Assembly: GCA_001772335.1 (NCBI GenBank) | Contig: METM01000024.1 | Span: 307-64,306 of the forward strand | From: a candidate division WOR-1 bacterium RIFCSPHIGHO2_01_FULL_53_15 | Lineage (GTDB): Bacteria > Margulisbacteria > WOR-1 > O2-12-FULL-45-9 > XYB2-FULL-48-7 | Direction of reading: 5' to 3' | DNA: 64,000 nucleotides | Shown: piece by piece, positions 5,927 to 33,661 of the stretch | How the letters are laid out: every line of letters starts with the position of its first letter | Position numbering within the stretch: position 1 is the first letter of the stretch | Position numbers and translations under genes: made by a program | The notes under the pieces: model-generated | Databases searched by the model: none | What the model saw: the letters and a program-made list of their open reading frames with translations, nothing else | What the model was told of the DNA's origin: nothing

Positions 5927-5940
5927 CCGCCTCTTGCCTC

Positions 5941-6981
5941 TCATTTGGCGATGACCATCGGTGGCAGGGTGGTTTGATAAGTTGAAAAGCCGTTGGCTTG
6001 GCGGTTATTGACCAGGAGATTGAATAAAAGCTTGATCTGCCGCGCGTTCAGGAAAGTTGGCTGATCATTGGCCGGTATGGCGATCGGCAGGCCGCCGGCG
6101 GCCGGGACAAGAAAGCCGGCGTAAGCGCCGGGGTCGGCGAAGAAAGCGTTGAGACCCGCCTCGCTCGTTTCGATATTGCTCACAGCCGCCTGGCCGATCA
6201 GCCGGTCGTTCTCATCGCGGGCCTCGATCGCGTAGCCGGCCAGGTAGAGCGGGAGTTGATTTTCAGGATAGGTCGGGCAGGCGAGAAAGGTGGTATAGCC
6301 CGCCTCCTGACAGGCAAAGCCATTGTCGATGTTGGCTTGAGTCGCCTGATTGGCGGCCACCAGGCCGGGCTGGGGCGCCGCGTCAGCTGGCATATTGGGC
6401 AAGCGGGTGGAATCGGTCGCGATCACGATCTGATAATCGTTCCAGTTGACATTGCCGTAGTAGCCCTCGAAATTCCAGACAAAAGGGAGGATGGGCGTGC
6501 CGTCAAGATAATTTATCCCGGTGTTGGCGGCAAAGGCCTCATCGGAGAGGATCGAGTTGCCGTTTTGATCTTTGTTGAGAATACAGGTGTCCGTGAGATC
6601 GTTGAAAATGCCGTTATTGTTAGTATCGATGCAGGTGGGATCATCGGCCGGGTCGTTATCAGCGCCGGCGACAGCGGTGGTTTCGTCGGGATAGGCCTCG
6701 GGATCCGGCTGCTGGCCGGGAATGCCGCCGCGCGCCTCCTCTTTGAAATCACCGTCGCCCTCCGGCCGCTCCGTGCCGCAGGCAAGCATTAAGCCGCCCA
6801 GGGCGATGGGAATGCCGACCGCAGGATTAATTAAAGAAATTGCCAGTCCCGTCAGGATCACGGCAAAATTTGGCCCGCCGTCATTATCCGTGCCGCGGCT
6901 TTTTGTCGTCTGTGGACGCTGGCTCGCGCTGGTTTTATTATAAACTAGATTCGCAATCGGACTTATCGAATAATCGCTCAT
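5941..6981 (-). CDS. Membrane-anchored / lipoprotein-like protein with Asp/Asn-rich calcium-loop-like motifs (hypothetical)
   Basis: Track ORF 5941..7020. I prefer ATG 6981 (MSDYSISP...), which has GGGAGGGAA SD 5 nt upstream, because ATG 7020 sits on the -10 of the promoter motif. Hydrophobic stretch FAVILTGLAISLINPAVGIPIALGGLMLACG ends in a lipobox-like LACG. DTNNNGIFNDLTD and NKDQNGNSILSDE resemble DxDxDG Ca-binding loops. The stop lies 14 nt before the adhesin start. Confidence 0.7.
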   Translation of the reverse strand: MSDYSISPIANLVYNKTSASQRPQTTKSRGTDNDGGPNFAVILTGLAISLINPAVGIPIALGGLMLACGTERPEGDGDFKEEARGGIPGQQPDPEAYPDETTAVAGADNDPADDPTCIDTNNNGIFNDLTDTCILNKDQNGNSILSDEAFAANTGINYLDGTPILPFVWNFEGYYGNVNWNDYQIVIATDSTRLPNMPADAAPQPGLVAANQATQANIDNGFACQEAGYTTFLACPTYPENQLPLYLAGYAIEARDENDRLIGQAAVSNIETSEAGLNAFFADPGAYAGFLVPAAGGLPIAIPANDQPTFLNARQIKLLFNLLVNNRQANGFSTYQTTLPPMVIAK

Positions 6982-7023
6982 GCATTCCCTCCCGCAGATT
7001 AAGGCGCTATTTCCCTTCATATA

Positions 7024-7053
7024 TATATCGTCAAGACAGGACGGAAATTTCAG
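7024..7053 (-). promoter_or_regulatory. ECF-like promoter motif copy P1 (TGAAAT-N16-CGATAT)
   Basis: Minus strand: CTGAAATTTCCGTCCTGTCTTGACGATATATAT, ~40 nt upstream of ATG 6981. Spacing is cross-checked against the overlapping track ORF translation (YIYRQDRTEIS). Confidence 0.5.
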
Positions 7054-7114
7054 TTAATTGTGGTTCTTTTATTGGGAGAAAATCGTGAGCGGATATAAGG
7101 CCTGGCCGGCCATA

Positions 7115-8473
7115 TTACCCTTTCAGTGAACTGAGAAAATCCTGAATCGTCCTGGCTAAATCCTGGAACTGATCCTTGGCCTCGACAATGCGGGCGAGGA
7201 CATCATTAATGGGTTCGAGCTGGTCGCGCGCCGCGGCCGCGAGGGCTTGGAGTTGGCCGTTGATGCGTTTGACCGCGGCCTGGGCCCCCACTTTCACTTC
7301 ATCGTCTAAGTCAGTATTTAACAGATCCTCATTTCTCTTGCGCTTGGCGCGCAATTCCTTGGCCTGCCTGTCGATATCAGCTGCTGCTGCCTGAAATTTT
7401 TGTTTCAGCGATTCCGCCCTGGCGCCGGCCGCCGCGATAAACTGGTCAAAGGAATCTTTTGCCTGGCCGGAAGCTATTGTCAGGCCAAGATCCTGCCCGG
7501 CTGGGGCCGCCTTGGCCGCGGCCGATCTGGCCGCCGCATCGGCTCTCGCTTCGGCAATGTGTCTCGCCTCTTCCGATAAAGTTAGGCGCCTTTGCAGTTC
7601 GGCGAGCTCGGCGCTTAGGTCGGGAGATGTCCCAACTCTCTTTTCTGTCAGTTCCATGGCCTTCAAAAAATGTTTACAGAATTGGTAGACGAGCAGATGG
7701 GCGATGAAAAGCGCCTCTGTCGAATCCAGACGCCGCTCTTTGTCAGGCAGTTGGTTATTCAGTATTTCCGGAATAATTTTTAAAAACTTTTCGACGACCC
7801 GCCTGCCTTCCGTTTCATAATAATGTTTATAATCTTTTTCCCCGGCTCTGACTAGCTCAAAATCAAGGAGAGCCATCAGTCTCGTCAACGCCAGGCTGAG
7901 GCCCGAAACAAGCTTTGTCTCGGCCGGCCCCTTACCCACCAGATTGGGAAGAATGCGGACAATATCGGTTAATATGCGTTCCGCTTCTTCTGCCTTGCCT
8001 GATTTAACAAGGACTTTTCCAAACACAGCCATCGTTCGTGCTAAAGACGGGCCCAAATCTGTGTCCGCTCCTCCAGCCATTGACATCACCAGGTCAACAA
8101 TGTCAGCGCCGTCATTATTGCCTGGCAGCGCGGCGGCCGGCAATGAGAACGAGTTTCCGGCTCCCGCCTGAAGGAAGGCCAGCTCTCTTTGCACAAAATC
8201 CCGCGCCCCGCCGGCAACGGCAACGATCTCATTGTTGGTGTGGCGCAAGAGGGGGTCGATCTTTAGGGCGAGCATGTCGAGCAGGTCGCGGCCGTGTTCA
8301 CGGGTAATGGCCTTGTTGTCACGCACCATTACAAGGCGCGCTTTTAAGAGATCGGCTTTGGCCGCCGGGGCCAGCGAGTTAATAAAATCAACCGGTTTAA
8401 TTGCCATGGCGCCAAGCCGGATCGCGGGCCCGGCATTAACCAGCGGACGGGCGGCTCCTCCTATCCTTACCAT
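7115..8473 (-). CDS. Hypothetical protein with long C-terminal Ala/Gln/Arg-rich coiled coil
   Basis: 452-aa ORF. The C-terminal ~170 aa have heptad-like, low-complexity coiled-coil sequence (AESLKQKFQAAAADIDRQAKELRAKRKRNEDLL...). The ATG directly abuts the kinase stop (TAA-ATG at 8476-8471). I recognise no family. Confidence 0.65.
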   Translation of the reverse strand: MVRIGGAARPLVNAGPAIRLGAMAIKPVDFINSLAPAAKADLLKARLVMVRDNKAITREHGRDLLDMLALKIDPLLRHTNNEIVAVAGGARDFVQRELAFLQAGAGNSFSLPAAALPGNNDGADIVDLVMSMAGGADTDLGPSLARTMAVFGKVLVKSGKAEEAERILTDIVRILPNLVGKGPAETKLVSGLSLALTRLMALLDFELVRAGEKDYKHYYETEGRRVVEKFLKIIPEILNNQLPDKERRLDSTEALFIAHLLVYQFCKHFLKAMELTEKRVGTSPDLSAELAELQRRLTLSEEARHIAEARADAAARSAAAKAAPAGQDLGLTIASGQAKDSFDQFIAAAGARAESLKQKFQAAAADIDRQAKELRAKRKRNEDLLNTDLDDEVKVGAQAAVKRINGQLQALAAAARDQLEPINDVLARIVEAKDQFQDLARTIQDFLSSLKG

Positions 8474-10504
8474 TTAATTGCCTCCCGGCGCGGCTTCAAT
8501 TTCTGTCGCCAGATTGATGAGCGCCTGTTTCAGTTGTTCTTCCTGTTCGGTTGGCGCCGGGTTGGCGTCAAGCGCGTCATAAAGAGGGCCGATGGCGGCG
8601 CTTATTTCGCGCGCCCTTTCAATCGAGGGGATCGCAACTTCCTCCGCGATGATCCTATTAATAATATTTAGCATTTCAGCTGGCGCCCGGGTTAAATATT
8701 TTATGTCAATAAGGGAAAGCTCGTCAGCCGGGAGAGCAACCGGCCCCTGGCTATCAGTTTGCTCCAGGCCCTCGCCGAGATAAACATTCAGGTCATTGAT
8801 CAATTTCGCATAGTTGTCATAGTCCTTGCCTTTGATCATTTTCAGGGCGATCTCGAACAGTTTTTTGTCGACTTCATCAGGGCGATTGATCGCCTTAAGA
8901 TGTTTGCCGCTTTTCATGAGCTTTAACAATTCGGGCAGTGTATTGGCTTTGCCCTCCAGGGGAGGGTAGCCGAGCGTTGTTTCCAGCAGGGTCCAGCCAA
9001 GAGAGGCAATATCCTCCCGGGTTAATTCCTCGGAGCTTAAATCATGGAGCGGCTGTTTATCAAACAGCTTGCCGTAAGCCAGCTCAACTGTTTTCGGGCC
9101 CCAGTAGAGCGGGGTGCCGACCAGTCCCTGCAGTTCTTCCGCGTCCCCGGCGGAAACATCCAGGCCTGTGCCCCAATCGGTCCAGACCCAGGTCCAATCC
9201 TTAGCTGACACATCACCGCGCGATTCGCTCATCAGCACAAAGGCATTTCCCGGTTTGATGTCGCGATGGACGAAATCGACCTGTTTTGCTTCCTTGAGCG
9301 TGGTGGCGGCCTGCCTGAAGAGCCGGGCGATCGCCTTAGCGCTGAAGGTCTGGCTTTTACTCCTCATGTCTTTAATGAGTTTCCCCAGATCAAGACCGGC
9401 CAGAAACTCCATCACGATCACCGGTCGGCCGTCAGCAGTGTCGCCGCTGTTAATAATGTTAGCGATGTGCTTTTGAAAGGCCGGGTCGATGGCCGCTCTC
9501 AGCCGCTTCATGACATCGGCTTCCTTGCGGAGATCAGCCGGAGATTGTCCTGGTTTTGCCAGCTTGAGCGCCACAACCTTGCCGTTCTGATCTTTAGCGC
9601 GGAACACTTCGCCCATGCCGCCCGCGCCGATCGGTTCGACATCGGTGTAAGTGATTTTGCCAATGGTCAGGGTTTTGACGACTTCGGCCGCTTCAGCGTC
9701 TACCGGCTTTGGCGGCAATATTTCCTTGAGCTTTAAAAGCAGGCGTTTGATCACAAGCCCGTCGGGCAGAGATCCGATTATTTTTTCCAGTGTTTCGAGG
9801 TTGAATTTTAGCGAATCGGGCGTTCCCTTTTTTCCCTCTTCCATATATTTAGCGTAATAATCGTAAGCGGCAAAGATCGGCAGGAAATCCCTGGCCTGTT
9901 TCTTATCGAAAAGTGTTAAAGCCCAGTCGCGCATTTTATATCTGGCGATGGCTTCGCGATATTCAAGATCCGCATGAAGGTCCGCCACTGCCTGTCTCGC
10001 CCGCGCCGGCCGACGGGCTAAGCGGTAGGCGCCGTAGCCGGCCAGCGCCGTGATCAGCAGGCCGGGGACGACCCCAAGGAGGAGGCCGGCGTTGACGGAG
10101 AGCAGGGCGAACGTATACGCGCCGATGTTGGGCGTAAACCATGCCAAGACCGGAGTTGCCACGCCGGCGAATATGAGGGGCAAAGATCTTAAGAATTTAT
10201 CTTTGAGATTATCGGGATGATTTTTGCGATAATTGTCCAGGGTTTTTACAACATAGGCGAGGTGAAGGTCCGGAGCGGGAGCGGGGGCGGGGGGCGTCGA
10301 CGCGCTGGCGGGAGTTTTGGCCGCTTTGGCGAAGAGATTATTCGGATTAACCAGTTTGATATCACTTGGCCGAAGGCCCGGCATGCCCGCGATCGCGGCG
10401 CCCCTGAAAGGTTCACTGAATTTCCGCGTCGCGTTTCTAACGCCGGCGGCGATTCTTGGCGGAATTTGCCTCCCGGTTTTCGTTAAAAGAAAAATTACGC
10501 TCAT
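8474..10504 (-). CDS. Membrane-anchored Hanks-type Ser/Thr protein kinase (divergent)
   Basis: Kinase motifs: G-loop IGAGGMGEVF, VALKLAK (VAIK Lys), HRDIKPGNAF (HRD/catalytic loop), TDWGTG (DFG replaced by DWG), GTPLYWGP (APE-like). There are N-terminal hydrophobic segments (LPLIFAGVATPVLAWF, AYTFALLSVNAGLLLGVVPGLLITALAGYGAY). The start is uncertain (no SD; alternative Met41). Confidence 0.85.
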   Translation of the reverse strand: MSVIFLLTKTGRQIPPRIAAGVRNATRKFSEPFRGAAIAGMPGLRPSDIKLVNPNNLFAKAAKTPASASTPPAPAPAPDLHLAYVVKTLDNYRKNHPDNLKDKFLRSLPLIFAGVATPVLAWFTPNIGAYTFALLSVNAGLLLGVVPGLLITALAGYGAYRLARRPARARQAVADLHADLEYREAIARYKMRDWALTLFDKKQARDFLPIFAAYDYYAKYMEEGKKGTPDSLKFNLETLEKIIGSLPDGLVIKRLLLKLKEILPPKPVDAEAAEVVKTLTIGKITYTDVEPIGAGGMGEVFRAKDQNGKVVALKLAKPGQSPADLRKEADVMKRLRAAIDPAFQKHIANIINSGDTADGRPVIVMEFLAGLDLGKLIKDMRSKSQTFSAKAIARLFRQAATTLKEAKQVDFVHRDIKPGNAFVLMSESRGDVSAKDWTWVWTDWGTGLDVSAGDAEELQGLVGTPLYWGPKTVELAYGKLFDKQPLHDLSSEELTREDIASLGWTLLETTLGYPPLEGKANTLPELLKLMKSGKHLKAINRPDEVDKKLFEIALKMIKGKDYDNYAKLINDLNVYLGEGLEQTDSQGPVALPADELSLIDIKYLTRAPAEMLNIINRIIAEEVAIPSIERAREISAAIGPLYDALDANPAPTEQEEQLKQALINLATEIEAAPGGN

Positions 10505-10511
10505 TGGCTTA

Positions 10512-12773
10512 TTACAGCGCCCAGGTCGTGACCGATGAATTGATGGTTGTGACCTTGCCGTAGCTGTCTTCGATCTCCAGCTCGACGGTGAAAGTGCCGG
10601 TCGTGGTGATATATGTGTAATCGGTTATGCCGTCAAAGATGCCGTCCGGCGCGCTGCCCGCGGTTTCTTCGTAGATCGAGCCGTCGCCAAAAGTGAATTT
10701 GTAGCGGACGACCTGCGCTCCGGCCGCGGTGGCGTGGCTCTGCGAAGCGTCGAAGGTGGCGGTGAAAGGGACCGGCCCCATATTGGTCGGCTGGATCGCT
10801 AAGCTGGCGACCGGATTGCCGTGAGGCACGACATTTATTTCCGACCGTATGTAGAGCTTGTAATCGGGATCGGCAACGTTCGTCAGCGTAACAACCAGGC
10901 CATACTTGCCGGGTGCGGCGTAGGCATGGCTAACGGCCGTGCCGCTCTCGATGGCTGAACCGTCGCCGTACTGCCAGTCGACCGTCCAGGCGGCGGGATC
11001 GTCCAGCGTGATGGCCATGTTGACCGCGGTCTCTTCTTCCGCCGAACCGGGGACGTCCAGTTGATAGGTCGGGGGTTCGACCGTCTGCGGGACGACGGTG
11101 ATACTCTGGGTGACGACGCTCTTGACCGTCGGGTCGTCGAGCCGGGCGACCGTGAGCATGACGGTGTAAGTGCCGGTTTGAGTATAGGCCTTAGGAGCCG
11201 GGATCGAGCCGGAGCCGGTCGTGCCGTCACCGTAATCCCAGGTGTAGGAGTAGATGGCTTCATCGGCATTGGCGGCGGAGAGCGCGATATCCTGGTTGAC
11301 CTTGGCGCTGAAGGGTCCGATGATTCCCGCCTGCGGGACCGCGACAGAGACAGGATAGACGGAGATGGGCCTGATCTCGTAATTTTTGGTCGCGCCGTCG
11401 GCGCCGGTGACCTCGAGCCGGAAGTCATAATCGCCCTTGAGAGCGAAAGTGTAGGAGAGGATGGTGGCGTCGTCGAAGGTCTCGATATTGCCGTCCGGGG
11501 TGGTGATGCTCCACTTGAAGGTGGCGTAGAGATCGTCGGAATAAGCGGCGATGTCGGTCTGGGTGTCGCCCTCATTATATGAATACTTGAGGTTGCCGGA
11601 GATGACAGCCGAAGGGATGGCGACAAAGGCGGAGACAACCGAGACCGACTGGGTCAGATAATATTTGATGGACGTGTCGCTCTTGTTGGTGGCGGTGAGC
11701 TTGACGGTGTAAGTTCCCAACTGAGTATAGGCGTGGCTGACGGCGGTGCCGGCTTCGAGCGGCGAGCCGTCGCCGTATTCCCAGGTATAATCCCAGTTGG
11801 CGGTGTCGGGATTGACGACGGTCATGGCGGCCGCTTCATTAATGTAGGCGGCATAGGGGGCGTTAAGAGAGAGGGCCGGGGGTTCGACCGACTGCGAGAC
11901 GATGGTGATACTCTGGGTGACGACGCTCTTGACCGTCGGGTCGTCGAGCCGGGCGACGGTGAGCATGACGGTGTAGGTGCCGGTCTGGGTGTAGGCCTTG
12001 GCAGCCGGGATCGAGCCGGAGCCGGTGGTGCCGTCACCATAGTCCCAGGTGTAGGAGTAGACGGCTTCATCGGCATTGGCGGCGGAGAGGCCGATATTTT
12101 CGTTTACGCGGGCGGCATAGGGACCGATGATCCCCGCCTGAGGGATTTCGGTTGCCGCTTCGGGATAGAAGCGGTTGAGAATGAAACCAGTATTGCCGTA
12201 GTGATCGCTGGCAGTACAGACAGCGCTGCTCAACATCGGCTGGGAGAAATTGCGCTTCAAGTCTTCATCCGCCTTGTAGGTGAGCACAAGATTGCCAAGC
12301 GGATCGAGCGAGCCGTTGGGCGGCAGGGGCTGGCCTGCTTCGGGGACAAACTTGCACGTGACGGTGATCTTGTCGTAGGAGCCGTCACAACTTTCGGCAT
12401 ACGGCTTGACCGTGGGCCAGCTCACCGGCGCGCCACCCTCCTGGGCCAGCGCTTCGGCGCCGACATGGAATGGGTTCGGATCGATGGCGACGGGATATTG
12501 GGGATCGTTCTGTTTGAGTATTCTCGGATTTCTGCCGCCGGTGGAGTTGCAGAGCGAATTGGCTTTGGTCGTATCCTCCCCGCCGCAGCCGGCCGGGACC
12601 GCAGAAGCGATAAGATGCGCGGCGCCAAGCAATATCCGGCCGCCGGCTTTAACAATAGACATATTCGACGCGTCTTTTTCGGCTACGGCTGCCGCCTGAT
12701 CCCAGCTTTTACCTTTATATAGGACATTATCCCAGAATGCTCCCGCGAATTTAATTAACGATACATCGCTCAT
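10512..12773 (-). CDS. PKD-repeat surface protein with long N-terminal extension and lipobox-like motif
   Basis: There are at least 5 PKD-like units (YTWDYGDGTTGSG...AYTQTGTYTVMLTV, WEYGDGSPLEAGTAVSHAYTQLGTYTVKLTA, WQYGDGSAIESGTAVSHAYAAPGKYGLVVTL, FTFGDGSIYEE...). AGGAGG SD lies 8 nt before the ATG. Hydrophobic GGRILLGAAHLIASAVPAGCGG sits at aa ~45-66. Confidence 0.85.
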   Translation of the reverse strand: MSDVSLIKFAGAFWDNVLYKGKSWDQAAAVAEKDASNMSIVKAGGRILLGAAHLIASAVPAGCGGEDTTKANSLCNSTGGRNPRILKQNDPQYPVAIDPNPFHVGAEALAQEGGAPVSWPTVKPYAESCDGSYDKITVTCKFVPEAGQPLPPNGSLDPLGNLVLTYKADEDLKRNFSQPMLSSAVCTASDHYGNTGFILNRFYPEAATEIPQAGIIGPYAARVNENIGLSAANADEAVYSYTWDYGDGTTGSGSIPAAKAYTQTGTYTVMLTVARLDDPTVKSVVTQSITIVSQSVEPPALSLNAPYAAYINEAAAMTVVNPDTANWDYTWEYGDGSPLEAGTAVSHAYTQLGTYTVKLTATNKSDTSIKYYLTQSVSVVSAFVAIPSAVISGNLKYSYNEGDTQTDIAAYSDDLYATFKWSITTPDGNIETFDDATILSYTFALKGDYDFRLEVTGADGATKNYEIRPISVYPVSVAVPQAGIIGPFSAKVNQDIALSAANADEAIYSYTWDYGDGTTGSGSIPAPKAYTQTGTYTVMLTVARLDDPTVKSVVTQSITVVPQTVEPPTYQLDVPGSAEEETAVNMAITLDDPAAWTVDWQYGDGSAIESGTAVSHAYAAPGKYGLVVTLTNVADPDYKLYIRSEINVVPHGNPVASLAIQPTNMGPVPFTATFDASQSHATAAGAQVVRYKFTFGDGSIYEETAGSAPDGIFDGITDYTYITTTGTFTVELEIEDSYGKVTTINSSVTTWAL
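11071..12144 (-). repeat. Two ~267-bp near-identical copies (11071-11337 and 11878-12144) inside the PKD gene
   Basis: About 90% nucleotide identity by eye over the first ~210 bp. The encoded segments are ...SAANADEA(I/V)YSYTWDYGDGTTGSGSIPA(P/A)KAYTQTGTYTVMLTVARLDDPTVKSVVTQSIT(V/I)V. Offset 807 bp (269 aa). Confidence 0.8.
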
Positions 12774-12836: not shown

Positions 12837-15800
12837 TTATTGTTCAAAGTCGAAATTGATGACAAAGCCCGCGTTCCAGGAATTGACCGGCAGTTTGTAA
12901 TCACCGTTTTTCCGCATGTCCTGGCGAACGCCCTGGTAACCGAGAGAAAGTTTTGGCGTGACGTACGGGATGACCTCGGAGAGGCTGGCCTCCAGGCCGC
13001 CGGCCAGGCCGAAATTGGCCACGCGCCGGGCCGCCCGCTCGTTGCCCCGCCATTCATAGTCGATGCCGGTTTCGCTGATGAACGATGCCCGCGGGCGCAG
13101 GATGAGCGCGTCGTCAAGAAAGCCGTAAACATATTTAAGGGAGGGTAGGGTGATCCGGTTCCGCGACGGGAAAGAACCGTTGTAGGGGAACCGGTAATAG
13201 CTGTATTCGGCGCCGACCGAGAACCGCTCCAGGGCTTCGATGTCCGTATCCTGGCCGACGGTGTAAAATAAATTGGCATAATATGTGCCCAATTCACGGT
13301 TCGCGTTGTCGAGCTCGGCCCGCCAGTAGCTGGTCAGGCCCTGGAGCCCGGCCGTTTCAAAGGGCGAATCGAGCCGCAGGCCGAAGCCGGTGTCGTGGCG
13401 GCGCAGGTATTGCTGGAGTAGCCGGTCGCCGGAGAGGAAATGGCTGGCCAGCCGCCCGTCGGCATCAAGCCCCACCCAGTCGACCGGCGAAAATTCGAGG
13501 CCGGAATAATAACTCTGCAATACGGCCCCGGCTTTGATGTCGGTCGTCATTTTGAGGAAAGGCCGCAGTGTCATCTCGGACGCAAGGTTGAAAGTGTAGC
13601 CGAGTTCTTCGGTCAGGCGGAACTCATGGTTGCCCTGGTCGTCGCCGAAATATTCGACGCCGAGGCGGACCTGCGAATCATCGCCCAGCGCGCGGCGCAG
13701 GCGGCGCAGGTCGCGCTCGATCAGCTCGCGGCGCCAGAGGGTGGCGATGCCGGGCAGGTAGGGCTTGACTTCGCTCAGGGCCCGCCGGAAATCGCCTATG
13801 CGGCGCTCCTCGAGGGCGAGCTGGGCATAGCCAAGCTGGATCTTTGCCAGATAATAATTCTTGAGATCGACGCTCTCGAGCTTGCCGGCCAGGGCCATGG
13901 CCGTTTCATAGTTTGCCCGGGCCTTGGCCGGGTCCTTGATGCGTTTGCCCGCGTCGTCCTTGCCTCGGCCGTAAGTATAAATGTTGCCCTGAAGGATATA
14001 ATATTCAACCCGATATTGCGGCGAGAGATTGTCCGGCTTTAACGCGCCGAGATACTTGAGCGCCGCGTCGAACCGTTTCGCGTAGCTCAGGACTTTGCCT
14101 TTTTCGACGCGCAACTCGCTTATGAATTCATTGACTCTGGCCTCCGAGACGCCGCGGGCCTTGAAGATCGCCCCGATCGCGCTCTTTTCGGCCAGAGCCG
14201 CGTCGATCTCTTTGAGCGAGAGGTCGTAGTCCTTATTGCCGTTGTAATAGAGGATCAGCCCCTTGATGATCCGGGAAGCCAGAAAGACATCGGCCTTCTG
14301 CTTAGGCAGAGCGGCAAGCGTTTTGGCCGCGGCGATCAGGTCTTCGAGCGCGCTTGCCGGATAACTTCTCTGGTAGAGCGAAAACTCGGCCCGGGCCACC
14401 TTGAGCCGGAGATCGTCTTCGGTCCCCGCTTCCGGCGTCTTGAAAATGCTGGAGAAAGCGTCGAACAAGCTCCGCGCCCGGTCGAAATTCCGGCTATAGA
14501 GCATGCCTTCGACCACCCGCAGATAGATCGAGCGGCTGGCGCCTTCTCCCTGGGAGGCGAGCAGGTTATCGGCGATCGCGATGAGCTGGGGGACGCCGGT
14601 CGATCTTTTGGCGATCAGGGCTTCGACGAGCGATTCTTCGGCGCGGCGCCTAAGGTAGGCCTCGGAATCTTTCTTGTCAAGAATGGCATTGGCCAGACCT
14701 ATTACCTCATCGGCCAGGTTGTCCGCCCCTTCCGAAGTTTTGGCGAATTGCTGCCGCAGGACGGCCTCCGCCCGGCCCAGCTGCGCGGCATCGCGCACGC
14801 TCTCGATCAGGCGCGGGTCTTTGATCAGCTTATCGTAGGCGTCGATCGCATTGTCGTATTCCATTGTCCAGTTATAGATGTCGGCCCGGCCGGCCGCCGC
14901 GAAATAATTGAGCGCGATGCCGTCGGCGGAAGAGAAGACGGAGATGGCGGCCTCATAATTTTGCCCGGCCTCGGGGATGCTGGAGAGGGCGAGATAGGCG
15001 TCGCCCCTGATCTGCAGGGCGGCCGAGAGCTGGTAATCGGCCAGGACGCCGTTGTTGGGCGGGGTATACTCCGTGTCGGAAACCAGAGACGGACCAAATT
15101 TGCCGTCAGGGCGGGCGGCCGCGATCAGCTCATCGGCCAATTTGAGCACGGCGCTTAAGATCTTTTCGTCTTTTTTCTGTTGGCCGAGAGCGAGCAGGGC
15201 TTTGGTTTGCGCGAGCCGGACCGGGCCGGCCAGGAGCTTGGTCCGGTCAAACGGCTCCGTCTTCTGCAAGATGGCGAGCGCCCGGGCGCCCTTGGTATCG
15301 GTGAGCGGATCGTAGGCGGGATCAAAGAGGGGGGCGGCCGCTCTCAAGAGGCCGGTGACCTTTTTTTCTTCGGGCAGTTTGCGGCGGACGGCGATCTCGG
15401 CGAGCGAGAGGCGGGCCTTGAGCGTCTGTTCGGCGGTGAGAAAATCCTGCTTATTCAGCGCGGCGGTCAGAATGCCGGAGGCGATATCCAAAGCGGCGTT
15501 CGCGGCGTCTTTCTGCGCCAGGATGATCTCGGCTTTCAAAAGCTGGAGATCGGCGGTGATCGAGTCGCGCCAGAATTTTGTCCCTTCGATCGGGCGGCGG
15601 CCATTAACCTTGATGGCGGCCTGATACTGGGTGGCTGCCTGGCCCAGGAGTCTTTCGGCATGCTCGGCCATGGTCTGGGCCCGATTGAGATAACGCTGGG
15701 AGTCCGACGCCGCTGCTTCGCCCGGCAAATAACTGTGGGCCAGACCCAACTGGTAGAGAGCGGAGGCCCCGAGGACTTCCGTGTCAAGGACATTGATCAG

Positions 15801-17000
15801 ATCGCTGTAGATCTTGTCGTCTTCCGAGTTAATAACAATGGTCTTGTATTGAGTTTCCTCCGCCACGGTCGTGAGCATGACATATTTATTGACCAGTTCC
15901 TGCGACTCCTTCAGGAGAGCGGCGATCTTTTTCAGCCGTTCAACATAGAACGGATGATGATTGGGGGTGTTGATCATCAGCAATTGGGCCTGGAGTTTAA
16001 GCGCCTGGGCCCGATAGCGGTAGGCCTCGGGCCGCATCCGGTCATAACTCGTTATGTCTTTTTTTATCGGGTTGCTGCGGTCCCGGATATATGACGCGAT
16101 GTATTCGTCGGCCAGGCCAAGAAAGTACTGCGTCTTGAAGACATTAAAGTTGCCGGACGGCATTTTGTCGAGTTGAGCAGTGTCGCCGAGGACTTTTTCT
16201 ATCCGCGTTTGCAGATAATTGTAATCGCGGCTTGGGCCGCCGGCGGGGGCGCTGTCGGCGTAGAAGTACTGCGCGATGAGGGCCTCGGCTTCGACCAGAG
16301 GATCGTTCAGCGCTTTGATCTTGCCGCCTTTTGGCGCGATGAGTTTGTCATAGATGTCACGAAAGATCTCGAATTTCTGCTGGCGGCTCATGGGCTGATT
16401 GTCCGGAATATTTGGAATAGCGATGCCAAAGACAAACCCTTTTGCGTGCGGCTGGCCTTCCCCGAATCGCATCCTAAGAAGGCGACGGGAAGAAGGATTG
16501 TCGATATCATTGGCCAGGATCAGCGCGATCCGGGCCCGCCAGTAATTGATGCGGAACGGCGCATCCGGGAAGCGGCGGTCGTCTAAAAGCGGAGCCAGGG
16601 TGATCTCGTCAGTGTACTGGAAAATATCTGGAAAATCTTCGCTCTCGATCGACTTGAGCGTCTTGCCGACACCCCAGTTGTAGCCGATCTCGCGCAGAAG
16701 CAGCCAGCGAATGAGCAGCAACTCATAGAGGACTTTTTTCGGCAGACGACAGCCCTTAAAACCTAAGCGGCGTTCGCCGGTGGCCTGGTCAGTAAATTCC
16801 CAACTGATGTCCGAATTTGAAGTGATGACCGCGTTGAGCATCTTGAAAGTATTTTCTTTGATCTTTAAGTAGGCGTCATTTTTCAGGTCGCAGGCGGTTG
16901 CGCCGCTCTTTTCGGCCGCGCCGCCGCCGGCGACCGGCGCGGACCGGAGCAGAGAGCAAATATCAGGATTGGCAATGCTTAATGTTCCATCAAGACCCAT
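12837..17000 (-). CDS. 1387-aa TPR-like helical-repeat protein with C-terminal beta-strand-rich (barrel-like) region
   Basis: aa ~430-1080 are Ala/Leu/Tyr-rich helical repeats with TPR-like spacing (YEAAISVFSSADGIALNYFAAAGRADIYNWTMEYDNAIDAYDKLI; ARANYETAMALAGKLESVDLKNYYLAKIQLGYAQLAL). The last ~290 aa show ~15 short alternating-hydrophobic strands (VRLGVEYFG, FRLTEELGYTFNL, GFGLRLDSPF, LGTYYANLFYTVG, FSVGAEYSYYRF, ITLPSLKYVYGF, SWNAGFVINFDFEQ). No N-terminal signal peptide is visible. Confidence 0.7.
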   Translation of the reverse strand: MGLDGTLSIANPDICSLLRSAPVAGGGAAEKSGATACDLKNDAYLKIKENTFKMLNAVITSNSDISWEFTDQATGERRLGFKGCRLPKKVLYELLLIRWLLLREIGYNWGVGKTLKSIESEDFPDIFQYTDEITLAPLLDDRRFPDAPFRINYWRARIALILANDIDNPSSRRLLRMRFGEGQPHAKGFVFGIAIPNIPDNQPMSRQQKFEIFRDIYDKLIAPKGGKIKALNDPLVEAEALIAQYFYADSAPAGGPSRDYNYLQTRIEKVLGDTAQLDKMPSGNFNVFKTQYFLGLADEYIASYIRDRSNPIKKDITSYDRMRPEAYRYRAQALKLQAQLLMINTPNHHPFYVERLKKIAALLKESQELVNKYVMLTTVAEETQYKTIVINSEDDKIYSDLINVLDTEVLGASALYQLGLAHSYLPGEAAASDSQRYLNRAQTMAEHAERLLGQAATQYQAAIKVNGRRPIEGTKFWRDSITADLQLLKAEIILAQKDAANAALDIASGILTAALNKQDFLTAEQTLKARLSLAEIAVRRKLPEEKKVTGLLRAAAPLFDPAYDPLTDTKGARALAILQKTEPFDRTKLLAGPVRLAQTKALLALGQQKKDEKILSAVLKLADELIAAARPDGKFGPSLVSDTEYTPPNNGVLADYQLSAALQIRGDAYLALSSIPEAGQNYEAAISVFSSADGIALNYFAAAGRADIYNWTMEYDNAIDAYDKLIKDPRLIESVRDAAQLGRAEAVLRQQFAKTSEGADNLADEVIGLANAILDKKDSEAYLRRRAEESLVEALIAKRSTGVPQLIAIADNLLASQGEGASRSIYLRVVEGMLYSRNFDRARSLFDAFSSIFKTPEAGTEDDLRLKVARAEFSLYQRSYPASALEDLIAAAKTLAALPKQKADVFLASRIIKGLILYYNGNKDYDLSLKEIDAALAEKSAIGAIFKARGVSEARVNEFISELRVEKGKVLSYAKRFDAALKYLGALKPDNLSPQYRVEYYILQGNIYTYGRGKDDAGKRIKDPAKARANYETAMALAGKLESVDLKNYYLAKIQLGYAQLALEERRIGDFRRALSEVKPYLPGIATLWRRELIERDLRRLRRALGDDSQVRLGVEYFGDDQGNHEFRLTEELGYTFNLASEMTLRPFLKMTTDIKAGAVLQSYYSGLEFSPVDWVGLDADGRLASHFLSGDRLLQQYLRRHDTGFGLRLDSPFETAGLQGLTSYWRAELDNANRELGTYYANLFYTVGQDTDIEALERFSVGAEYSYYRFPYNGSFPSRNRITLPSLKYVYGFLDDALILRPRASFISETGIDYEWRGNERAARRVANFGLAGGLEASLSEVIPYVTPKLSLGYQGVRQDMRKNGDYKLPVNSWNAGFVINFDFEQ

Positions 17001-17012: not shown

Positions 17013-20000
17013 TTATAAGGACCCTCCCGGTTTTCTCTTTGGCTTATGCGGCCTGGGTACGAAAGCGAAAAGCAGTTCTCGGGCGCGATCGACCGCCTGA
17101 CGCGTGCCGGCCGACAGATTTTCGCTATAAGCGAACTGCGCGTAAAGGTTCATATAGGCCAGGTTAAGATATTTCTGCTTGGAGCCCTTGAGCGAAATGG
17201 CCTTGACGATCGCCAGCTGATGATAAGTCGAGGCCAGGAGATCGTGGAGATCAAAGAGCGGCGGCTCTTTTTTCTCTTTCGCCGTAGCGGCCGCCTGCTC
17301 CAGTCTTTGGCGGACGCCCGGAGTTTTCGCATCTTTGTTGTCCAGAATGATCTCGGCCCTTTTCAGGATTGCATCTCTCTGAGTGTTATCGCCCTGTTTC
17401 TGGTATTCGGCGGCCATGACGGTGTAGGCCATGGCGAGCTTGAGATCGAATTTGGCCGCCAGGAGGAAGCGGCTGCGCTCCGGCTGGAGCTCGATCATCT
17501 GGCGGATCTCGGGCGTCAGGACGGCCGTCGCCTGCACGAGTTCTTTTATCACCGCCGCCGGGGTTTGGCCGTTCTTGCTATGGATGAGATGAAGATCGGC
17601 CAGGACGAGCGCGGCTTCGATCCTAAGATAGGCCGTGGCGGAGATCTCCCTGTTTTTCATGGCGCCTTCGATATTATCGATCAAGCTCTGGACGCTGGGA
17701 AAATCAATGTCGTAGATGTCTTTTTGGTCATAACATCTTTCACCGTCTTCATCGAGGTTTTTGCACTGGCTGAGCGGCACCTGCCTTGTGACGGTGACCT
17801 CCCAACCGCCGCCCGCGCGGGAGACGGAGGCATCGCTTTTATTGATCTGGAAAGTAATTGGGTCATTGAGCGTGGCCCGCCACCAATAATCTTTCTCATC
17901 TATTCTTGCTTCCGTGATCGTTGCCTGGTTTTTCCGGAGACTCAGGAGTCCCATCAGATTATACGCGTCGCCGTTTAATTCGGGCTGATAAGGCAGGGAA
18001 AAGTCGGGCCGGACCGTGATCTTATAAAAATCGCCCTCGACCAGCGGCTGGTTCGGCGTAATAAACTTAAAAGTTCTCATGAATGGATTGTTCAGCCGCC
18101 TGAAAGTTGAAAGACGCAGCTCGTTGTCGGCCATCTGGATGAGGAGGCCGGCCCGCAGGTCGGCTGCCCGTTCCTCAAATCTGTCATCAAGCTCAGGGGA
18201 GAGCCGGTTCCGCTGGCGCAGGACCGCCTCCCCCTTATCAAGATACGAACCAGCCAGCTTTGTCAGCTCGTCGGCAATGTCCAGACGGAAGTTGAGAATG
18301 GTATTGGCTTGTCTGATCAATTCTCTGGTTGTCCGCAATGAGGTCGTTGAGATAACGTCGGCCAGCGAGAGCCAAAACCCCCTGACCAATTCTTTGCTGT
18401 AGACAAGCTGGTAAAGGTCATAAGAGGCCATGACAGAGTTATAGCCGAAATTCTGCGTGAGCAGCCGATCCGTCTTCTTGATGAATTCAGCCGGCAGGAG
18501 ATCAGGCGCGGCTTTTTGAAGGAGATCTAGTGCTGCTTGAAAAGTCTTTCTTGAATCCTCCTCATATTTCTTGGGGTCATCATTTTTTTGCGAGGTGGAA
18601 AGGACCAAACTGTCGGAGAGCATTTTCAGGGCCAGAGCGATGAGCTGGTTGGCCCGGGCCAGGAAATAGCGGTTGTCGCCGTAGGGCGAGCCCTCAATGA
18701 TCTCGGTAAGACCGGCGTCAAGATAAGCCAGTATCTGGCAGAAGTCCTGATAGCCGGCTTCGTTATACGGCTTGTATGGATTTTCCAGCGCCAGGCCGGC
18801 CAGCCGGAGCAGGTCTTTGCCTTTCAGCACGCGGAAGATCTCGTGACTGCCGGCGTTCATCTCTGCTTCGGTGATGTGGCCGGCCTGATAAGAACTGTCC
18901 AATGACTTCTTGATCTCGTCGACGGAGGCGACGACCTCGATCCCGGAGGTTGCCAGGCTAAGCCCCCGGTTGTTTTTGAGATTGATCTCGGCGACGGCCT
19001 GGAAGAGTTTTTGGCTGACCTCGTAATGGTCCCGTGACGCGTCATAATTTTTTTCTTTGATCAACTGCTGGGCGATCCGGGCATGGAGGTCGGCGGCGAT
19101 GATGATGCCGTTAATGATGGCGTAATATTCGCGGTTGCTGTCACTGCCCTTTGGATTGAGGCGCTTGAGGGCGTCTTCGGCCAGCGCCAGGCCGATCTTG
19201 TAAGTTTCGGAGCGGGCTTCGCGCAGCAGGGAATAGCCCTCGGCAATTGAAAGGAGGAGGCGCGGGTACTCGTAATCCTGGCTGGGGACCTGCGGCGAGG
19301 CAAAGAAACGGGCTTCGATCTTTTTCTGTTCGAGTATCTGATCCTTCAAGCGCCGGCCGAGCCCGATGCTCTTTCTGACCTGCGACTGGTCATTATTCTC
19401 GATCGCCTTCTGGGTATAGACGCGGTGGAGAATGAGCATGTTGTCCCAGAAAGTCGACGGCTGATCGAGATAATCGGCTATGACCGGCGAGATCCCTTTC
19501 ACGATCTTAAGCAGATCCGGATTGACTTCCCGGGTGGTTTTCATGGCATCGCGCAGGAGCGAGAGAGGGTTTAGTTTGAAGCGGGCGACCGCCTCGAGCA
19601 GTTGTTCCACCGTCTTGAGCGGCAGATCGCCGCGCATCAGCCGGAGAGCCAGCTTCTTCTCGTTGAGTTTTCTGAGATGGACGCGCCGGTCGAAAATATC
19701 GCCGATGGAGCGTTTGATCTTTAATTCCTTGGCCGATAATTTGTTCGGGTCGACGACCGCGCCGTAGGGCGTAGCGTACGGCGGCAGGTCGCGCTCTTCG
19801 GGATAGGCGGAGAGGCAGTTGTCTCCCTTCTGCGGCGGCCGGCAGACCCGCTGGCCGATCTGCGAGGGGAGAACAAAATCCGGGATCTCCCGGATAATAG
19901 CGTTAGGGTTGGGGAGCGGCGCGGGCGGCGCCGGCAAAGGGTAAGGAGCCAGATTGGGATTATTTGCCAGTTTGGCGGGACGAAAATCGAATTGATCATT

Positions 20001-21077
20001 GTTCAGAGAAGCGAGAAATCCTTGAAATGGCTTAATGAGCCCGCCTTTTAGCGGTGTTATATGGGTGGCATAGACCGCGTCTTCCGGCACGTTATAGTAA
20101 ATGCTTAAGATCGGCTTGATGCCTTTGGCTTTCAGGGCCGGATGGGTGCCGTTAAAGACCGAAATGATCGACGGGAACTGCCAGTCAACTTTTGCCCCGG
20201 CTTCGCCGATGCCGTACGGGAGTTTAAGTAATTTGGTTTTTGGGCGATCGGGATGGCTTTTGTTGTATTTCTCGAGATCGTCGTTGTATTTGTCGATCTT
20301 TTCATCCATTTGAATAAAAGAGCGCGCCAGCCAATCGCCCACCTGGCCGCATTCCTGGGCGTGTAAGGGGCAATACGAATCAAAAAGAATAATGCCTATT
20401 TTGTTGGCGCCGTCGGCCGGATAGCCCGGATCGGTAGGCGGATAATATTGGAAAAAGTCAGCCTCTTCATTGATCCCGCCTTGGGCGATATTGGGGCGCA
20501 GGACGTGAAAATTCACGCCCCAGAGCGCATTCTCGACTTTTTCTTCGTTCGCTATTTTGAGAAAGTTATTAAAGGCCCGCTTATATTTTGTCGGCCCGTT
20601 GACCGAGGTTAATCCAAAATCTCCCGCATCTCCCCAGGGATACCAGTAATAATGGCCGGGCCGCTCGTCAAGCTCGCCAAAACTCCGGCCGTTCATTTCG
20701 TGGCCGATCGGATGGATCAATACTGGCACGCCGGCCGCTTTTACGCCGGCTAGGAAGCGCCGGATGATCGGATCATATTGGCCGCTGATGAGCCAGTCGA
20801 GATACCGGTCATTTTTGCGGTTGCATTCCATTTTGATGAAAGTGAGTATGCCTTTCTCCCAATTCAGCCGGACTTCTTCGACGGGGAACTGCCAGGCGTC
20901 CTCGATCTGCATAAAAATGACCTTGACATCGACATGGCCGATCTCTTCGTCGAATTTCTTTTCCCCTTCGCGGCTGATCACGGCGCTATTGACGGTGCCG
21001 CTTAAGGGGCCGCTGTCCTGGAAATTGATCATTTTATAGCCGGTGCCGGTTGGCCCGAGGGCCGAAAGTTCGCTCAT
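17013..21077 (-). CDS. 1354-aa protein: N-terminal GH26-like glycoside-hydrolase domain fused to a ~1000-aa helical solenoid
   Basis: aa ~60-330 carry VLIHPIGHEMNGRSFG...YYWYPWGD (compare GH26 RPLHEMNG-W-WWG, the acid/base Glu) and LPYGIGEAGA (a nucleophile-type xxE-G). The rest is helical and repeat-like. ATGA overlap with the upstream 529-aa gene; 12-nt gap to the next gene. Confidence 0.6.
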   Translation of the reverse strand: MSELSALGPTGTGYKMINFQDSGPLSGTVNSAVISREGEKKFDEEIGHVDVKVIFMQIEDAWQFPVEEVRLNWEKGILTFIKMECNRKNDRYLDWLISGQYDPIIRRFLAGVKAAGVPVLIHPIGHEMNGRSFGELDERPGHYYWYPWGDAGDFGLTSVNGPTKYKRAFNNFLKIANEEKVENALWGVNFHVLRPNIAQGGINEEADFFQYYPPTDPGYPADGANKIGIILFDSYCPLHAQECGQVGDWLARSFIQMDEKIDKYNDDLEKYNKSHPDRPKTKLLKLPYGIGEAGAKVDWQFPSIISVFNGTHPALKAKGIKPILSIYYNVPEDAVYATHITPLKGGLIKPFQGFLASLNNDQFDFRPAKLANNPNLAPYPLPAPPAPLPNPNAIIREIPDFVLPSQIGQRVCRPPQKGDNCLSAYPEERDLPPYATPYGAVVDPNKLSAKELKIKRSIGDIFDRRVHLRKLNEKKLALRLMRGDLPLKTVEQLLEAVARFKLNPLSLLRDAMKTTREVNPDLLKIVKGISPVIADYLDQPSTFWDNMLILHRVYTQKAIENNDQSQVRKSIGLGRRLKDQILEQKKIEARFFASPQVPSQDYEYPRLLLSIAEGYSLLREARSETYKIGLALAEDALKRLNPKGSDSNREYYAIINGIIIAADLHARIAQQLIKEKNYDASRDHYEVSQKLFQAVAEINLKNNRGLSLATSGIEVVASVDEIKKSLDSSYQAGHITEAEMNAGSHEIFRVLKGKDLLRLAGLALENPYKPYNEAGYQDFCQILAYLDAGLTEIIEGSPYGDNRYFLARANQLIALALKMLSDSLVLSTSQKNDDPKKYEEDSRKTFQAALDLLQKAAPDLLPAEFIKKTDRLLTQNFGYNSVMASYDLYQLVYSKELVRGFWLSLADVISTTSLRTTRELIRQANTILNFRLDIADELTKLAGSYLDKGEAVLRQRNRLSPELDDRFEERAADLRAGLLIQMADNELRLSTFRRLNNPFMRTFKFITPNQPLVEGDFYKITVRPDFSLPYQPELNGDAYNLMGLLSLRKNQATITEARIDEKDYWWRATLNDPITFQINKSDASVSRAGGGWEVTVTRQVPLSQCKNLDEDGERCYDQKDIYDIDFPSVQSLIDNIEGAMKNREISATAYLRIEAALVLADLHLIHSKNGQTPAAVIKELVQATAVLTPEIRQMIELQPERSRFLLAAKFDLKLAMAYTVMAAEYQKQGDNTQRDAILKRAEIILDNKDAKTPGVRQRLEQAAATAKEKKEPPLFDLHDLLASTYHQLAIVKAISLKGSKQKYLNLAYMNLYAQFAYSENLSAGTRQAVDRARELLFAFVPRPHKPKRKPGGSL

Positions 21078-22663
21078 GGCTGGCTCCTGTCTTTTCGCAT
21101 TTCATCGCGGATGCGGTTCTTGACGCTGTCATCAAGATCGAGGACAAAGTCGAGCAGGTGGTCGACGACATAATTGAGCCGCTCCCGCGGCGTCTTGAGA
21201 GCGCGGATGTCAAATTCGTATTTGACGGGCGTGTTATCCTGCAGGGCGACATCGCGCAGGCCGAGCTCAAGTCCTAAATTGCCGATGGCGGCTTTGGGGG
21301 TGGGATCCCAATCAAAGCCGACCCCGCGCGCGGTCCGCGAAAACCGGCTTTCTTCCCTGACCAGGAGGCCGAGGGCCTCGCGCAGGTCGGCGTATTTCGG
21401 CTGATAGAGCTTGTCCCAGTCGATATATTTTTCAAATTCCGCCGCGGGATCAAATTCCGTCGCGGGATCGGGTTCCGCCGCGGGATCGAGGGGAAAAAAA
21501 CAGGCGATCAGGATGCCGAAGAACGCCTCGAGGCCGATCTTCAAAAAACCGCCGTATTTGCGGGTGGTCTCCGGCCGGTCGAAAAGAATGACTTTATAAG
21601 CGCTGATCGCATCCTCGGCGGTCAGCTTATCCCTGGCTTTGATGTGGGCGTTCAGCAATTCCGCGGTCAGCTCGTCAAAACGCAGGTCTTTCCGGCTCAT
21701 TTCGTCGACCCACCAGAGAGCCGGGAGAAAGCGGCCCTGTTTTTCGCCGGACCAAATGACGCTCTTTGCCAGCAGATCCAGGACATTCGACTCGGCAAGT
21801 CCCCGCGAAGGGGGATTGAAGATATAGCGATAGCCCTTGAAGATGCGGATCTGGTTGAGATAGCCCTCGCGGGAGATATCGTCGATGCCGTGGCTTGCGA
21901 GGCAATCCGGGTTGTCCAACATCGCCTCGATCTCATTGGAGAACTCGATGGCGCCGCCGGGATTGTGCAGGCTCAGGGCCTGCAGGAGAAAAAGCTGGGT
22001 CTGGATGTAGTCGTGGACGGGATAAACCTGGTGCGATTTCTTCTCGGCATAAGGCAGGTGCCGGAGCTGGCTGTGGTCGACATTGGTCGCCAGGTTATAG
22101 CGGAGGAACTGCTCGGCGAGGGTCAGGTATTCCGGTTTCGCGCTGATGAAGAACATGTCGATCGCCCACCGGGCCGCGGTCATGAGCAGTTTAGCGTCTC
22201 TTTTGGGCATATCCATTTTGAACGGCCGGTCGATCAGGAAGCCGCCGTCCATTTTGCCGAAACCGTCGACAGCGAGGATTTCGAGGGCGTCAATCACACC
22301 CGCCGGCCGATACGGTTCGCTCTCCTTGCGGCAGAAATCCTGCCGCCGGCCTGTCAGCTCCTCTGCCTTCGCCTCGGCCGCGACCAGGCCGCTCTCCACG
22401 GCGGCGTTGGAAATTATGTCGGTAATATAGCCGATGACGCGCGCCCTTTCATTCCGTAGCAGGGTGCGGTTCCGCTCAAGCAGGCAGACGTGATAATCGG
22501 TCTCGCTCCCGCCTTTTTTTTGGACGCATTCGTCGGGGACGGAGAGCTGGCCGCGCTGGAAGTTGGTCACGCTGGGTTTGTGAAAATATATATTCCTTGT
22601 GTCAATGCCGCCGCCGCCGTTTTGGTAAACGGGGATGGCCGGCAACTCTGATATGTTGGTCAT
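21074..22663 (-). CDS. 529-aa hypothetical protein with one predicted TM helix and an acidic Pro-rich tandem repeat
   Basis: The ORF follows promoter copy P3 and SD GGAAAGGG. Single hydrophobic segment FLKIGLEAFFGILIACFFPL, followed by DPAAEPDPATEFDPAAEF. I recognise no family. Confidence 0.6.
   Translation of the reverse strand: MTNISELPAIPVYQNGGGGIDTRNIYFHKPSVTNFQRGQLSVPDECVQKKGGSETDYHVCLLERNRTLLRNERARVIGYITDIISNAAVESGLVAAEAKAEELTGRRQDFCRKESEPYRPAGVIDALEILAVDGFGKMDGGFLIDRPFKMDMPKRDAKLLMTAARWAIDMFFISAKPEYLTLAEQFLRYNLATNVDHSQLRHLPYAEKKSHQVYPVHDYIQTQLFLLQALSLHNPGGAIEFSNEIEAMLDNPDCLASHGIDDISREGYLNQIRIFKGYRYIFNPPSRGLAESNVLDLLAKSVIWSGEKQGRFLPALWWVDEMSRKDLRFDELTAELLNAHIKARDKLTAEDAISAYKVILFDRPETTRKYGGFLKIGLEAFFGILIACFFPLDPAAEPDPATEFDPAAEFEKYIDWDKLYQPKYADLREALGLLVREESRFSRTARGVGFDWDPTPKAAIGNLGLELGLRDVALQDNTPVKYEFDIRALKTPRERLNYVVDHLLDFVLDLDDSVKNRIRDEMRKDRSQP
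21434..21487 (-). repeat. 3 x 18-bp in-frame tandem repeat (encodes DPAAEP/DPATEF/DPAAEF)
   Basis: Plus strand: aaattccgccgcgggatc / aaattccgtcgcgggatc / gggttccgccgcgggatc. Confidence 0.75.
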
Positions 22664-22686: not shown

Positions 22687-22716
22687 ATTATCGTCAAGAA
22701 CTGGCAAAAATTTCAC
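22687..22716 (-). promoter_or_regulatory. ECF-like promoter motif copy P3 (TGAAAT-N16-CGATAA)
   Basis: Minus strand: GTGAAATTTTTGCCAGTTCTTGACGATAATATT. The TGA inside GTGAAA is the stop codon of the 2154-aa gene. Spacing is confirmed by track ORF 22597..23109 (YNIIVKNWQKFH). Confidence 0.5.
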
Positions 22717-33415: not shown

Positions 33416-33479
33416 TTTACACCATCATGGAATAAAGTCAAGGCCAATTTACAGTATCATGGAAAACGGCCGGAGGCGC

Positions 33480-33642: not shown

Positions 33643-33661
33643 TTATATAACGGGAGTTATC

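Follow-up and report, generated by a model that had tools for sequence, protein, structure and literature searches.

The stretch of DNA analysed here (the window) comprises 64,000 nt of contig METM01000024.1 from the candidate division WOR-1 bacterium RIFCSPHIGHO2_01_FULL_53_15. We studied a minus-strand gene in this window encoding a 1387-aa protein that combines a tetratricopeptide repeat (TPR)-like solenoid with a predicted C-terminal β-barrel of the outer-membrane type and lacks a recognisable export signal; it is called the TPR-barrel protein below. The gene is a complete open reading frame (ORF) in a tightly packed operon, where it is preceded by genes for proteins of 2154, 529 and 1354 aa and followed by genes for a PKD-repeat protein, a Ser/Thr protein kinase, proteins of 452 and 359 aa and a giant protein of at least 1981 aa, in this order. 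Its ATG lies 12 nt past the stop codon of the upstream gene, and since an in-frame stop is located two codons 5′ of this ATG, the ORF cannot be extended upstream. The encoded protein is identical to the NCBI entry 'hypothetical protein A3D23_04525' of candidate division WOR-1 bacterium RIFCSPHIGHO2_02_FULL_53_26, a WOR-1 (Saganbacteria) metagenome-assembled genome (MAG) from Rifle groundwater. Scanning the full-length sequence against Pfam and NCBIfam assigned it to no family, the only Pfam hit at E ≤ 0.1 being a chance PAS match.

Working from the letters of the sequence, a first-pass annotation had proposed a TPR-like solenoid fused to a membrane-type β-barrel, and this architecture was borne out by AlphaFold2 and Foldseek. 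The last ∼287 residues are rich in aromatic residues and glycine (FWY 14.3%, G 9.8%, compared with 8–10% and 5.7% in the rest of the protein), and hydrophobic and polar columns alternate across the whole domain in the family alignment. The corresponding dyad hydrophobicity signal was 0.185, as against 0.166 for the barrel of the BamA encoded in the window and ∼0.12 for helical regions. An AlphaFold2 run on three sequences was unusable, with a predicted local distance difference test score (pLDDT) of 47; our conclusions rest on a run with a 15-sequence family alignment, which reached a pLDDT of 83.7 and a predicted template modelling score (pTM) of 0.77. The resulting model shows one helix (residues 1086–1105) and then 14 long antiparallel strands (1111–1383), as counted from its DSSP string, rather than the ∼15 estimated previously. 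All 13 strand-like segments listed in the first-pass annotation overlap predicted strands, and only strand 5 (1176–1190) had been missed.

Foldseek returned 129 PDB matches to this model at E ≤ 1e-3, and the best 50 of the 129 were outer-membrane barrels throughout (OmpG, PgaA, PelB and porins, with CymA among the top matches). The best superposition was with OmpG (2iwv_A; TM-score normalised to the query (TMq) 0.56 and to the target (TMt) 0.60, root-mean-square deviation 5.4 Å), and PgaA (4y25) and PelB (9h80_M) gave TMq values of 0.50 and 0.48. Sequence identity of the barrel to OmpG and CymA is just 9–14%, and sequence-profile searches of the PDB with barrel alignments A2 and A4 returned noise only. 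The TM-scores, together with the sequence pattern, suggest that the predicted barrel is closed and carries a hydrophobic outer surface. The earlier suggestion that this might not be an outer-membrane protein at all has become unlikely, given the confidence of the barrel model and the identity of its fold matches.

The first-pass annotation also regarded the C-terminus, FDFEQ, as anomalous, as it lacks a terminal aromatic residue. The ending itself was read correctly, but the anomaly is minor. The last strand (...NAGFVINFDF) is β-signal-like (GFVINFDF) and ends on F1385, which aligns with the terminal Phe or Trp of most relatives and is followed by Glu-Gln. Among family representatives, 10 of 16 end exactly on F or W (...EWKF, ...QGTF, ...ERIF, ...IGF, ...KKF, ...FIF, ...RFW, ...HTF and ...FRF are the endings found), and others carry tails of one residue, two residues or longer past the aromatic. 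F1385 is thus the family-conserved terminal aromatic with a two-residue tail, and the C-terminus probably does not argue against insertion into the outer membrane.

We searched 1.84 billion representative proteins exhaustively with HMMER, using a profile of the barrel region, and recovered 15 proteins; the barrel domain is C-terminal in every one of them. No relatives were found by a word-indexed homology search with the barrel alignments, so that the family was recovered by exhaustive HMMER alone. All members that carry a source name come from Margulisbacteria or Saganbacteria. A locus search with alignment A1 returned just two loci that were already known, and we found no prior description of the gene cluster, or of signal-less TPR-barrel proteins in these phyla, in the literature we searched. 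In locus L012, the two parts of the protein are called as separate ORFs that overlap by 4 nt, with the TPR part (1427 aa) at 5721..10004 and the barrel (382 aa, P0007) at 10001..11149; the division could be natural, yielding two polypeptides, or could stem from a frameshift or an assembly error.

To our knowledge, every characterised bacterial β-barrel outer-membrane protein is taken across the inner membrane by an N-terminal Sec signal. The window's BamA-like Omp85 protein and TamB both carry canonical signals; the presence of their genes indicates a diderm organism, and their signals indicate that its outer-membrane machinery is targeted through Sec in the ordinary way. The TPR-barrel protein had been noted to lack a hydrophobic h-region, and this observation held: its maximum Kyte–Doolittle hydropathy over 19 residues (KD19) is 1.17 across the entire protein, and the lack of a signal peptide is shared throughout the family. 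We compared 10 full-length members with six genuine Sec substrates encoded at the same loci. The best hydropathy over 10 residues (KD10) within the first 45 residues ranged from −0.03 to 1.6 in the family members and from 2.2 to 3.8 in the Sec substrates, and the net charge of residues 2–12 was −2 to 0 as against +2 to +4. Looking for N-terminal extensions with signal peptides in homologues, as had been proposed earlier, revealed none in these 10 members, and a hidden upstream start was ruled out since no alternative in-frame start is present in five loci.

The N-terminus is conserved not as a hydrophobic core but as a Cys-pair motif. In 9 of the 10 members, a first Cys at position 10–18 is followed by a second one 16–25 residues on, in proteins that are otherwise Cys-poor (3–5 Cys per 1400–1550 residues). 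The protein of the window has three Cys in total, with C15 and C37 forming the pair. Such a pair would be compatible with a disulfide in an oxidising, periplasmic compartment. We also considered a single Φ-C-x-P motif shared across the signal-less proteins of the cluster, with a hydrophobic residue at −1 in 62% compared with 40% for internal Cys and a Pro within +3 in 46% compared with 26% (n = 26); support was weak, and this motif was set aside in favour of the N-terminal Cys pair, which is conserved in the TPR-barrel family and echoed in the ∼500-aa family of the cluster.

Conservation is highest in residues 1–450 (39% identity with the Margulisbacteria orthologue), which contain the motifs WLxxRExG, YWRAxIAxIL..D.DNP.SR, DPLxEAE and KIYSDLIN. 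They have no Pfam match, and a PDB profile search with the N-terminal alignment gave noise. The middle region that follows is, to judge from its sequence, a divergent TPR solenoid. Pfam searches with sequence fragments gave sub-threshold matches to TPR_16 (within residues 441–600), TPR_11 (666–687), TPR_1 (704–724, E 2.4e-4) and TPR_19 (∼1022–1083, E 0.01), and TPR_19 exceeds its gathering score in two relatives, P0005 and P0013 (40.2 and 31.5 bits). With the family profile, residues 650–727 align with the TPR pair at 343–413 of Escherichia coli BcsC, which is a generic TPR-to-TPR match.

The core gene order recurs in the window and in loci L001 (Margulisiibacteriota), L005, L010, L011 and L012, with relatives that are 23–36% identical to the TPR-barrel protein. 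Positions of the genes and protein parts are collected in Table 1.

Table 1. Coordinates of the TPR-barrel gene, its parts and the associated genes in the window and in related loci
Feature	Locus	Coordinates	Strand	Remarks
TPR-barrel gene, complete ORF, 1387 aa	Window	12837..17000	−	Stop codon 12837..12839
N-terminus, residues 1–38	Window	16887..17000	−	No hydrophobic h-region; net negative charge; C15/C37
Conserved N-terminal region, residues 1–450	Window	15651..17000	−	
Central divergent TPR-like solenoid, residues ∼451–1085	Window	13746..15650	−	TPR matches
Predicted connecting helix before the barrel, residues 1086–1105	Window	13686..13745	−	AlphaFold2
Predicted 14-strand outer-membrane β-barrel, residues 1111–1385	Window	12846..13670	−	AlphaFold2, Foldseek
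EQ tail past the barrel, residues 1386–1387	Window			
GH26-like partner, 1354 aa	Window	17013..21077	−	N-terminal glycoside hydrolase domain, then long helical region; no signal peptide
∼500-aa cluster protein, 529 aa	Window	21074..22663	−	One transmembrane-like segment, ∼372–395; N-terminal Cys pair
Orthologue of ∼500-aa protein	L001	1627..3120		
Orthologue of ∼500-aa protein	L005	4132..5562		
Orthologue of ∼500-aa protein	L010	4553..6010		
2154-aa cluster protein	Window	22713..29177	−	Moderately hydrophobic segments at residues 130–320 and 530–575
PKD-repeat protein	Window	10512..12773	−	Lipoprotein-type signal after internal Met (...LIASAVPAG/C)
Membrane-anchored eukaryote-type Ser/Thr protein kinase	Window	8474..10504	−	
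Ser/Thr kinase counterpart	L005	18050..20320		
Ser/Thr kinase counterpart	L010	21358..23439		
Ser/Thr kinase counterpart	L011	17554..20394		
Giant ORF, at least 1981 aa	Window	1..5944	−	Runs past the left end of the window; canonical signal peptide MKIKILLIGSLLGLALAAGAPA; closes the operon
GH16 gene	Window	29855..30928	−	
GH16 gene	L001	11375..12745		
GH16 gene	L010	18055..19425		

The gene directly upstream, for the 1354-aa partner, is translationally coupled to the TPR-barrel gene, and this synteny is found in five loci. A profile of four orthologues of the partner matched PDB structures of mannanases of glycoside hydrolase family 26 (GH26) at E 2e-6, in an alignment that includes the HEMNG acid/base motif. 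The Pfam GH26 model matches two orthologues, and the L010 orthologue has a precomputed GH26 match. These profile comparisons identify a divergent GH26 domain at the N-terminus of the partner. It is fused to ∼1000 helical residues, and in the L005 orthologue an extra insertion of ∼290 residues stands at the N-terminus before the hydrolase domain. BLASTP between the partner and the TPR-barrel protein gave E 0.17, and paralogy was rejected. A domain of GH8, the family of BcsZ, is carried by a cluster protein of ∼1150 aa in L011 and L012. GH16 genes are present as well; GH16 is normally a secreted family, and a signal-less GH16 is unusual, but no signal peptide was detected in the GH16 proteins of the window, L001 and L010.

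Two further upstream genes encode putative inner-membrane proteins. The 2154-aa protein, for which no Pfam, NCBIfam or PDB relative was found, is probably a polytopic inner-membrane protein, and its C-terminal ∼520 residues share 47% identity with the partial first ORF of L001. In the ∼500-aa family, 3 of 4 members have two Cys in total, both of them N-terminal and 12–14 residues apart.

Downstream, the PKD gene follows the TPR-barrel gene immediately, or with one small gene in between, in 5 of the 6 loci that extend past it (the window, L005, L010, L011 and L012), and in L001 it comes after GH16. The PKD-repeat protein has an N-terminal extension of ∼37 residues before a signal or lipobox-like segment (MSIVKAGGRILLGAAHLIASAVPAG/C). 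Its orthologues in L001, L005 and L012 share this layout, with a recurring P-x-G-C that replaces the classical lipobox. The L005 counterpart of the giant protein at the end of the operon is 1733 aa long and has Big_5/TIG domains. Beyond the cluster, at 32180..34384 of the window, an AAA_14/DUF4143 ATPase (−) and an AbiEii-type nucleotidyltransferase toxin (+) lie in DNA of lower GC content (0.49–0.53); this stretch may be a small defence or toxin–antitoxin islet.

The closest known systems are the synthase-dependent exporters of cellulose (BcsC), poly-N-acetylglucosamine (PNAG; PgaA) and Pel (PelB), alongside the AlgK and AlgE proteins of alginate export. BcsC, PgaA and PelB consist of TPRs and a 16-strand barrel, PelA docks on the TPRs of PelB, and AlgE has 18 strands (PMC12141448). 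Like BcsC, PgaA and PelB, the TPR-barrel protein unites in one polypeptide an extended TPR solenoid at the N-terminus and a predicted outer-membrane barrel at the C-terminus, and its barrel model superposes on those of PgaA and PelB. The coupling of its gene to that of a glycoside hydrolase-bearing protein likewise resembles the systems of BcsZ (GH8), PelA and PgaB. In contrast to these exporters, its barrel is predicted to have 14 strands, it carries neither a Sec signal nor an N-terminal transmembrane segment, and it has an extra conserved region of ∼450 residues with a Cys pair. The operons differ, too: here the hydrolases are fused to helical proteins of >1000 residues, a Ser/Thr kinase is present, and neither a GT2 synthase nor a module for cyclic di-GMP (c-di-GMP) was detected.

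The relation to TPR-porin exporters put forward in the first-pass annotation therefore holds at the level of fold and operon context, but Pfam and hhalign comparisons gave no sequence relation to BcsC, PgaA or PelB. Sequence homology of the barrel to BcsC and PgaA was rejected by hhalign, with probabilities of 0.3% for E. coli BcsC and 0.1% for PgaA. B-barrel_PelB_C reached a sub-threshold score in 1 of the 15 members (19.3 bits, cut-off 31), and the positive controls BcsC and PgaA matched their own Pfam models with 401 and 460 bits. By these model scores, the barrel family lies outside every Pfam and NCBIfam barrel family at threshold. Taken together, the predicted fold and the comparisons support a resemblance to BcsC/PelB/PgaA-type TPR-porins in fold and context, and not membership of those sequence families. 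OmpG and CymA, both 14-strand monomeric sugar channels, share the strand number of the predicted barrel; unlike the TPR-barrel protein, they carry signal peptides and stand alone, with no solenoid in the periplasm.

We propose, with about even confidence for and against, that Margulisbacteria and Saganbacteria possess a lineage-specific envelope system for handling a glycan, in which the TPR-barrel protein serves as conduit through the outer membrane and as scaffold in the periplasm. The conduit would be formed by the C-terminal 14-strand barrel, embedded in the outer membrane, and the helical/TPR arm of ∼1100 residues would span the periplasm and scaffold the co-encoded giant glycoside hydrolase proteins (GH26-like here, GH8 elsewhere), in parallel with the binding of PelA and PgaB by the TPRs of PelB and PgaA. 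Its inner-membrane partners would be the polytopic 2154-aa protein, a candidate for the inner-membrane engine of the system, and the single-pass ∼500-aa protein. The membrane Ser/Thr kinase would act as regulator, and its conservation suggests control by phosphorylation and not by c-di-GMP. The analogy with exopolysaccharide exporters is strengthened by the coupled GH26-like partner and by the GH8 and GH16 genes beside relatives of the TPR-barrel gene, and we infer that the substrate is most likely a β-linked glycan.

Several results weigh against this proposal. The evidence is computational throughout and comes from MAGs. The 14-strand count is taken from a DSSP string, and closure and the hydrophobic outer surface of the predicted barrel are read from TM-scores and sequence pattern. 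The protein does not match Pfam BCSC_C (PF05420), PgaA_barrel (PF21197) or B-barrel_PelB_C (PF24604), and neither a glycosyltransferase or synthase nor a c-di-GMP receptor (PilZ/GGDEF-type) was detected with Pfam and NCBIfam among the cluster proteins; the 2154-aa protein could hide a glycosyltransferase synthase. Furthermore, none of the 10 full-length members has a signal peptide, transmembrane anchor, Tat motif or lipobox, which leaves them with no known path across the inner membrane. Signals are also missing from the GH26, GH8 and GH16 partners, so the whole set could be cytoplasmic. In that case, the signal-less proteins of the cluster, namely the TPR-barrel protein, the GH26/GH8 giants, GH16 and the ∼500-aa protein, would assemble into a complex in the cytoplasm or at the membrane periphery, and a soluble or oligomeric β-structure would have been over-interpreted as a 'barrel'. 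That several cluster families lack signals agrees with this idea, as does the reliance of barrel closure and surface polarity on TM-scores and sequence pattern. We nevertheless consider it very improbable: the model is confident and its top fold matches are all membrane barrels, dyad hydrophobicity is seen along the entire domain and, like the terminal aromatic residue, is a conserved trait of the family, and a barrel of 14 strands lacks a hydrophobic core that could be buried in water. The Cys pair in a Cys-poor protein, moreover, fits an oxidising compartment, and export or lipoprotein signals are present on other members of the operon.

If the protein does reach the outer membrane, it could still be an ordinary substrate of Sec and of the β-barrel assembly machinery (BAM) whose cryptic and weakly hydrophobic signal goes undetected in hydropathy scans. 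This explanation concerns targeting alone and is thus compatible with a function as conduit or as translocon. Mildly apolar stretches do occur near the first Cys in some members (ICVPPPLIPA, KD10 1.49; GISPVFLNIC, 1.6), the β-signal-like last strand suggests normal handling by BAM, and genes for BamA and TamB are nearby. These stretches are proline-rich, however, and no positively charged n-region accompanies them; the hydropathy and charge of the family remain below the ranges of the Sec substrates, four other protein families of the cluster show the same deficiency, and it is the Cys pair that is conserved at the N-terminus. We therefore regard a cryptic Sec signal as unlikely. A different function is conceivable by analogy with Slam proteins of type XI secretion, which pair an N-terminal TPR domain with a 14-stranded DUF560 barrel and of which about half adjoin the gene of a lipoprotein substrate (PMC5449769). 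Here, the TPR-barrel protein would move the PKD lipoprotein or the giant adhesin-like protein, rather than a polysaccharide, over the outer membrane. The TPR N-domain, the 14 predicted strands, the recurrent position of the lipoprotein-type PKD gene and the giant signal-peptide protein at the end of the operon all fit such a translocon. Against it, DUF560 and TPR_Slam match none of the 15 members at E ≤ 5, nor the full-length protein at E ≤ 0.1, and the arm of ∼1100 residues is about five to ten times longer than the short TPR domain of Slam. Slams also carry ordinary signal peptides, and the conserved GH26, GH8 and GH16 partners, which have no place in Slam systems, would be left unexplained. 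We thus find a Slam-like translocon rather improbable.

One possibility for targeting, which we put forward tentatively and do not expect to hold, is that Margulisbacteria and Saganbacteria possess a dedicated Sec-independent route that delivers the barrel protein and its giant glycoside hydrolase partners into the envelope, with the Cys-pair segment serving as a sorting or maturation signal and the 2154-aa and ∼500-aa proteins as inner-membrane machinery. If true, this would be the first family of bacterial β-barrel outer-membrane proteins to arrive at the outer membrane without a signal peptide.

In this family, a confidently predicted barrel fold, an aromatic residue conserved at its end and a TPR arm of a length that could span the periplasm coincide with the absence of an export signal. 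This points either to an unrecognised targeting route or to a gap in the recognition of export signals in deep-branching relatives of Cyanobacteria. The barrel also adds a predicted 14-strand variant to the TPR-porin architecture. Our analysis delineates a lineage-restricted trans-envelope gene cluster that had not been described before. It is composed of the TPR-barrel protein, GH26/GH8 giants, a PKD lipoprotein, a Ser/Thr kinase and a giant membrane protein, and probably accounts for a surface glycan in organisms known from metagenomes alone.

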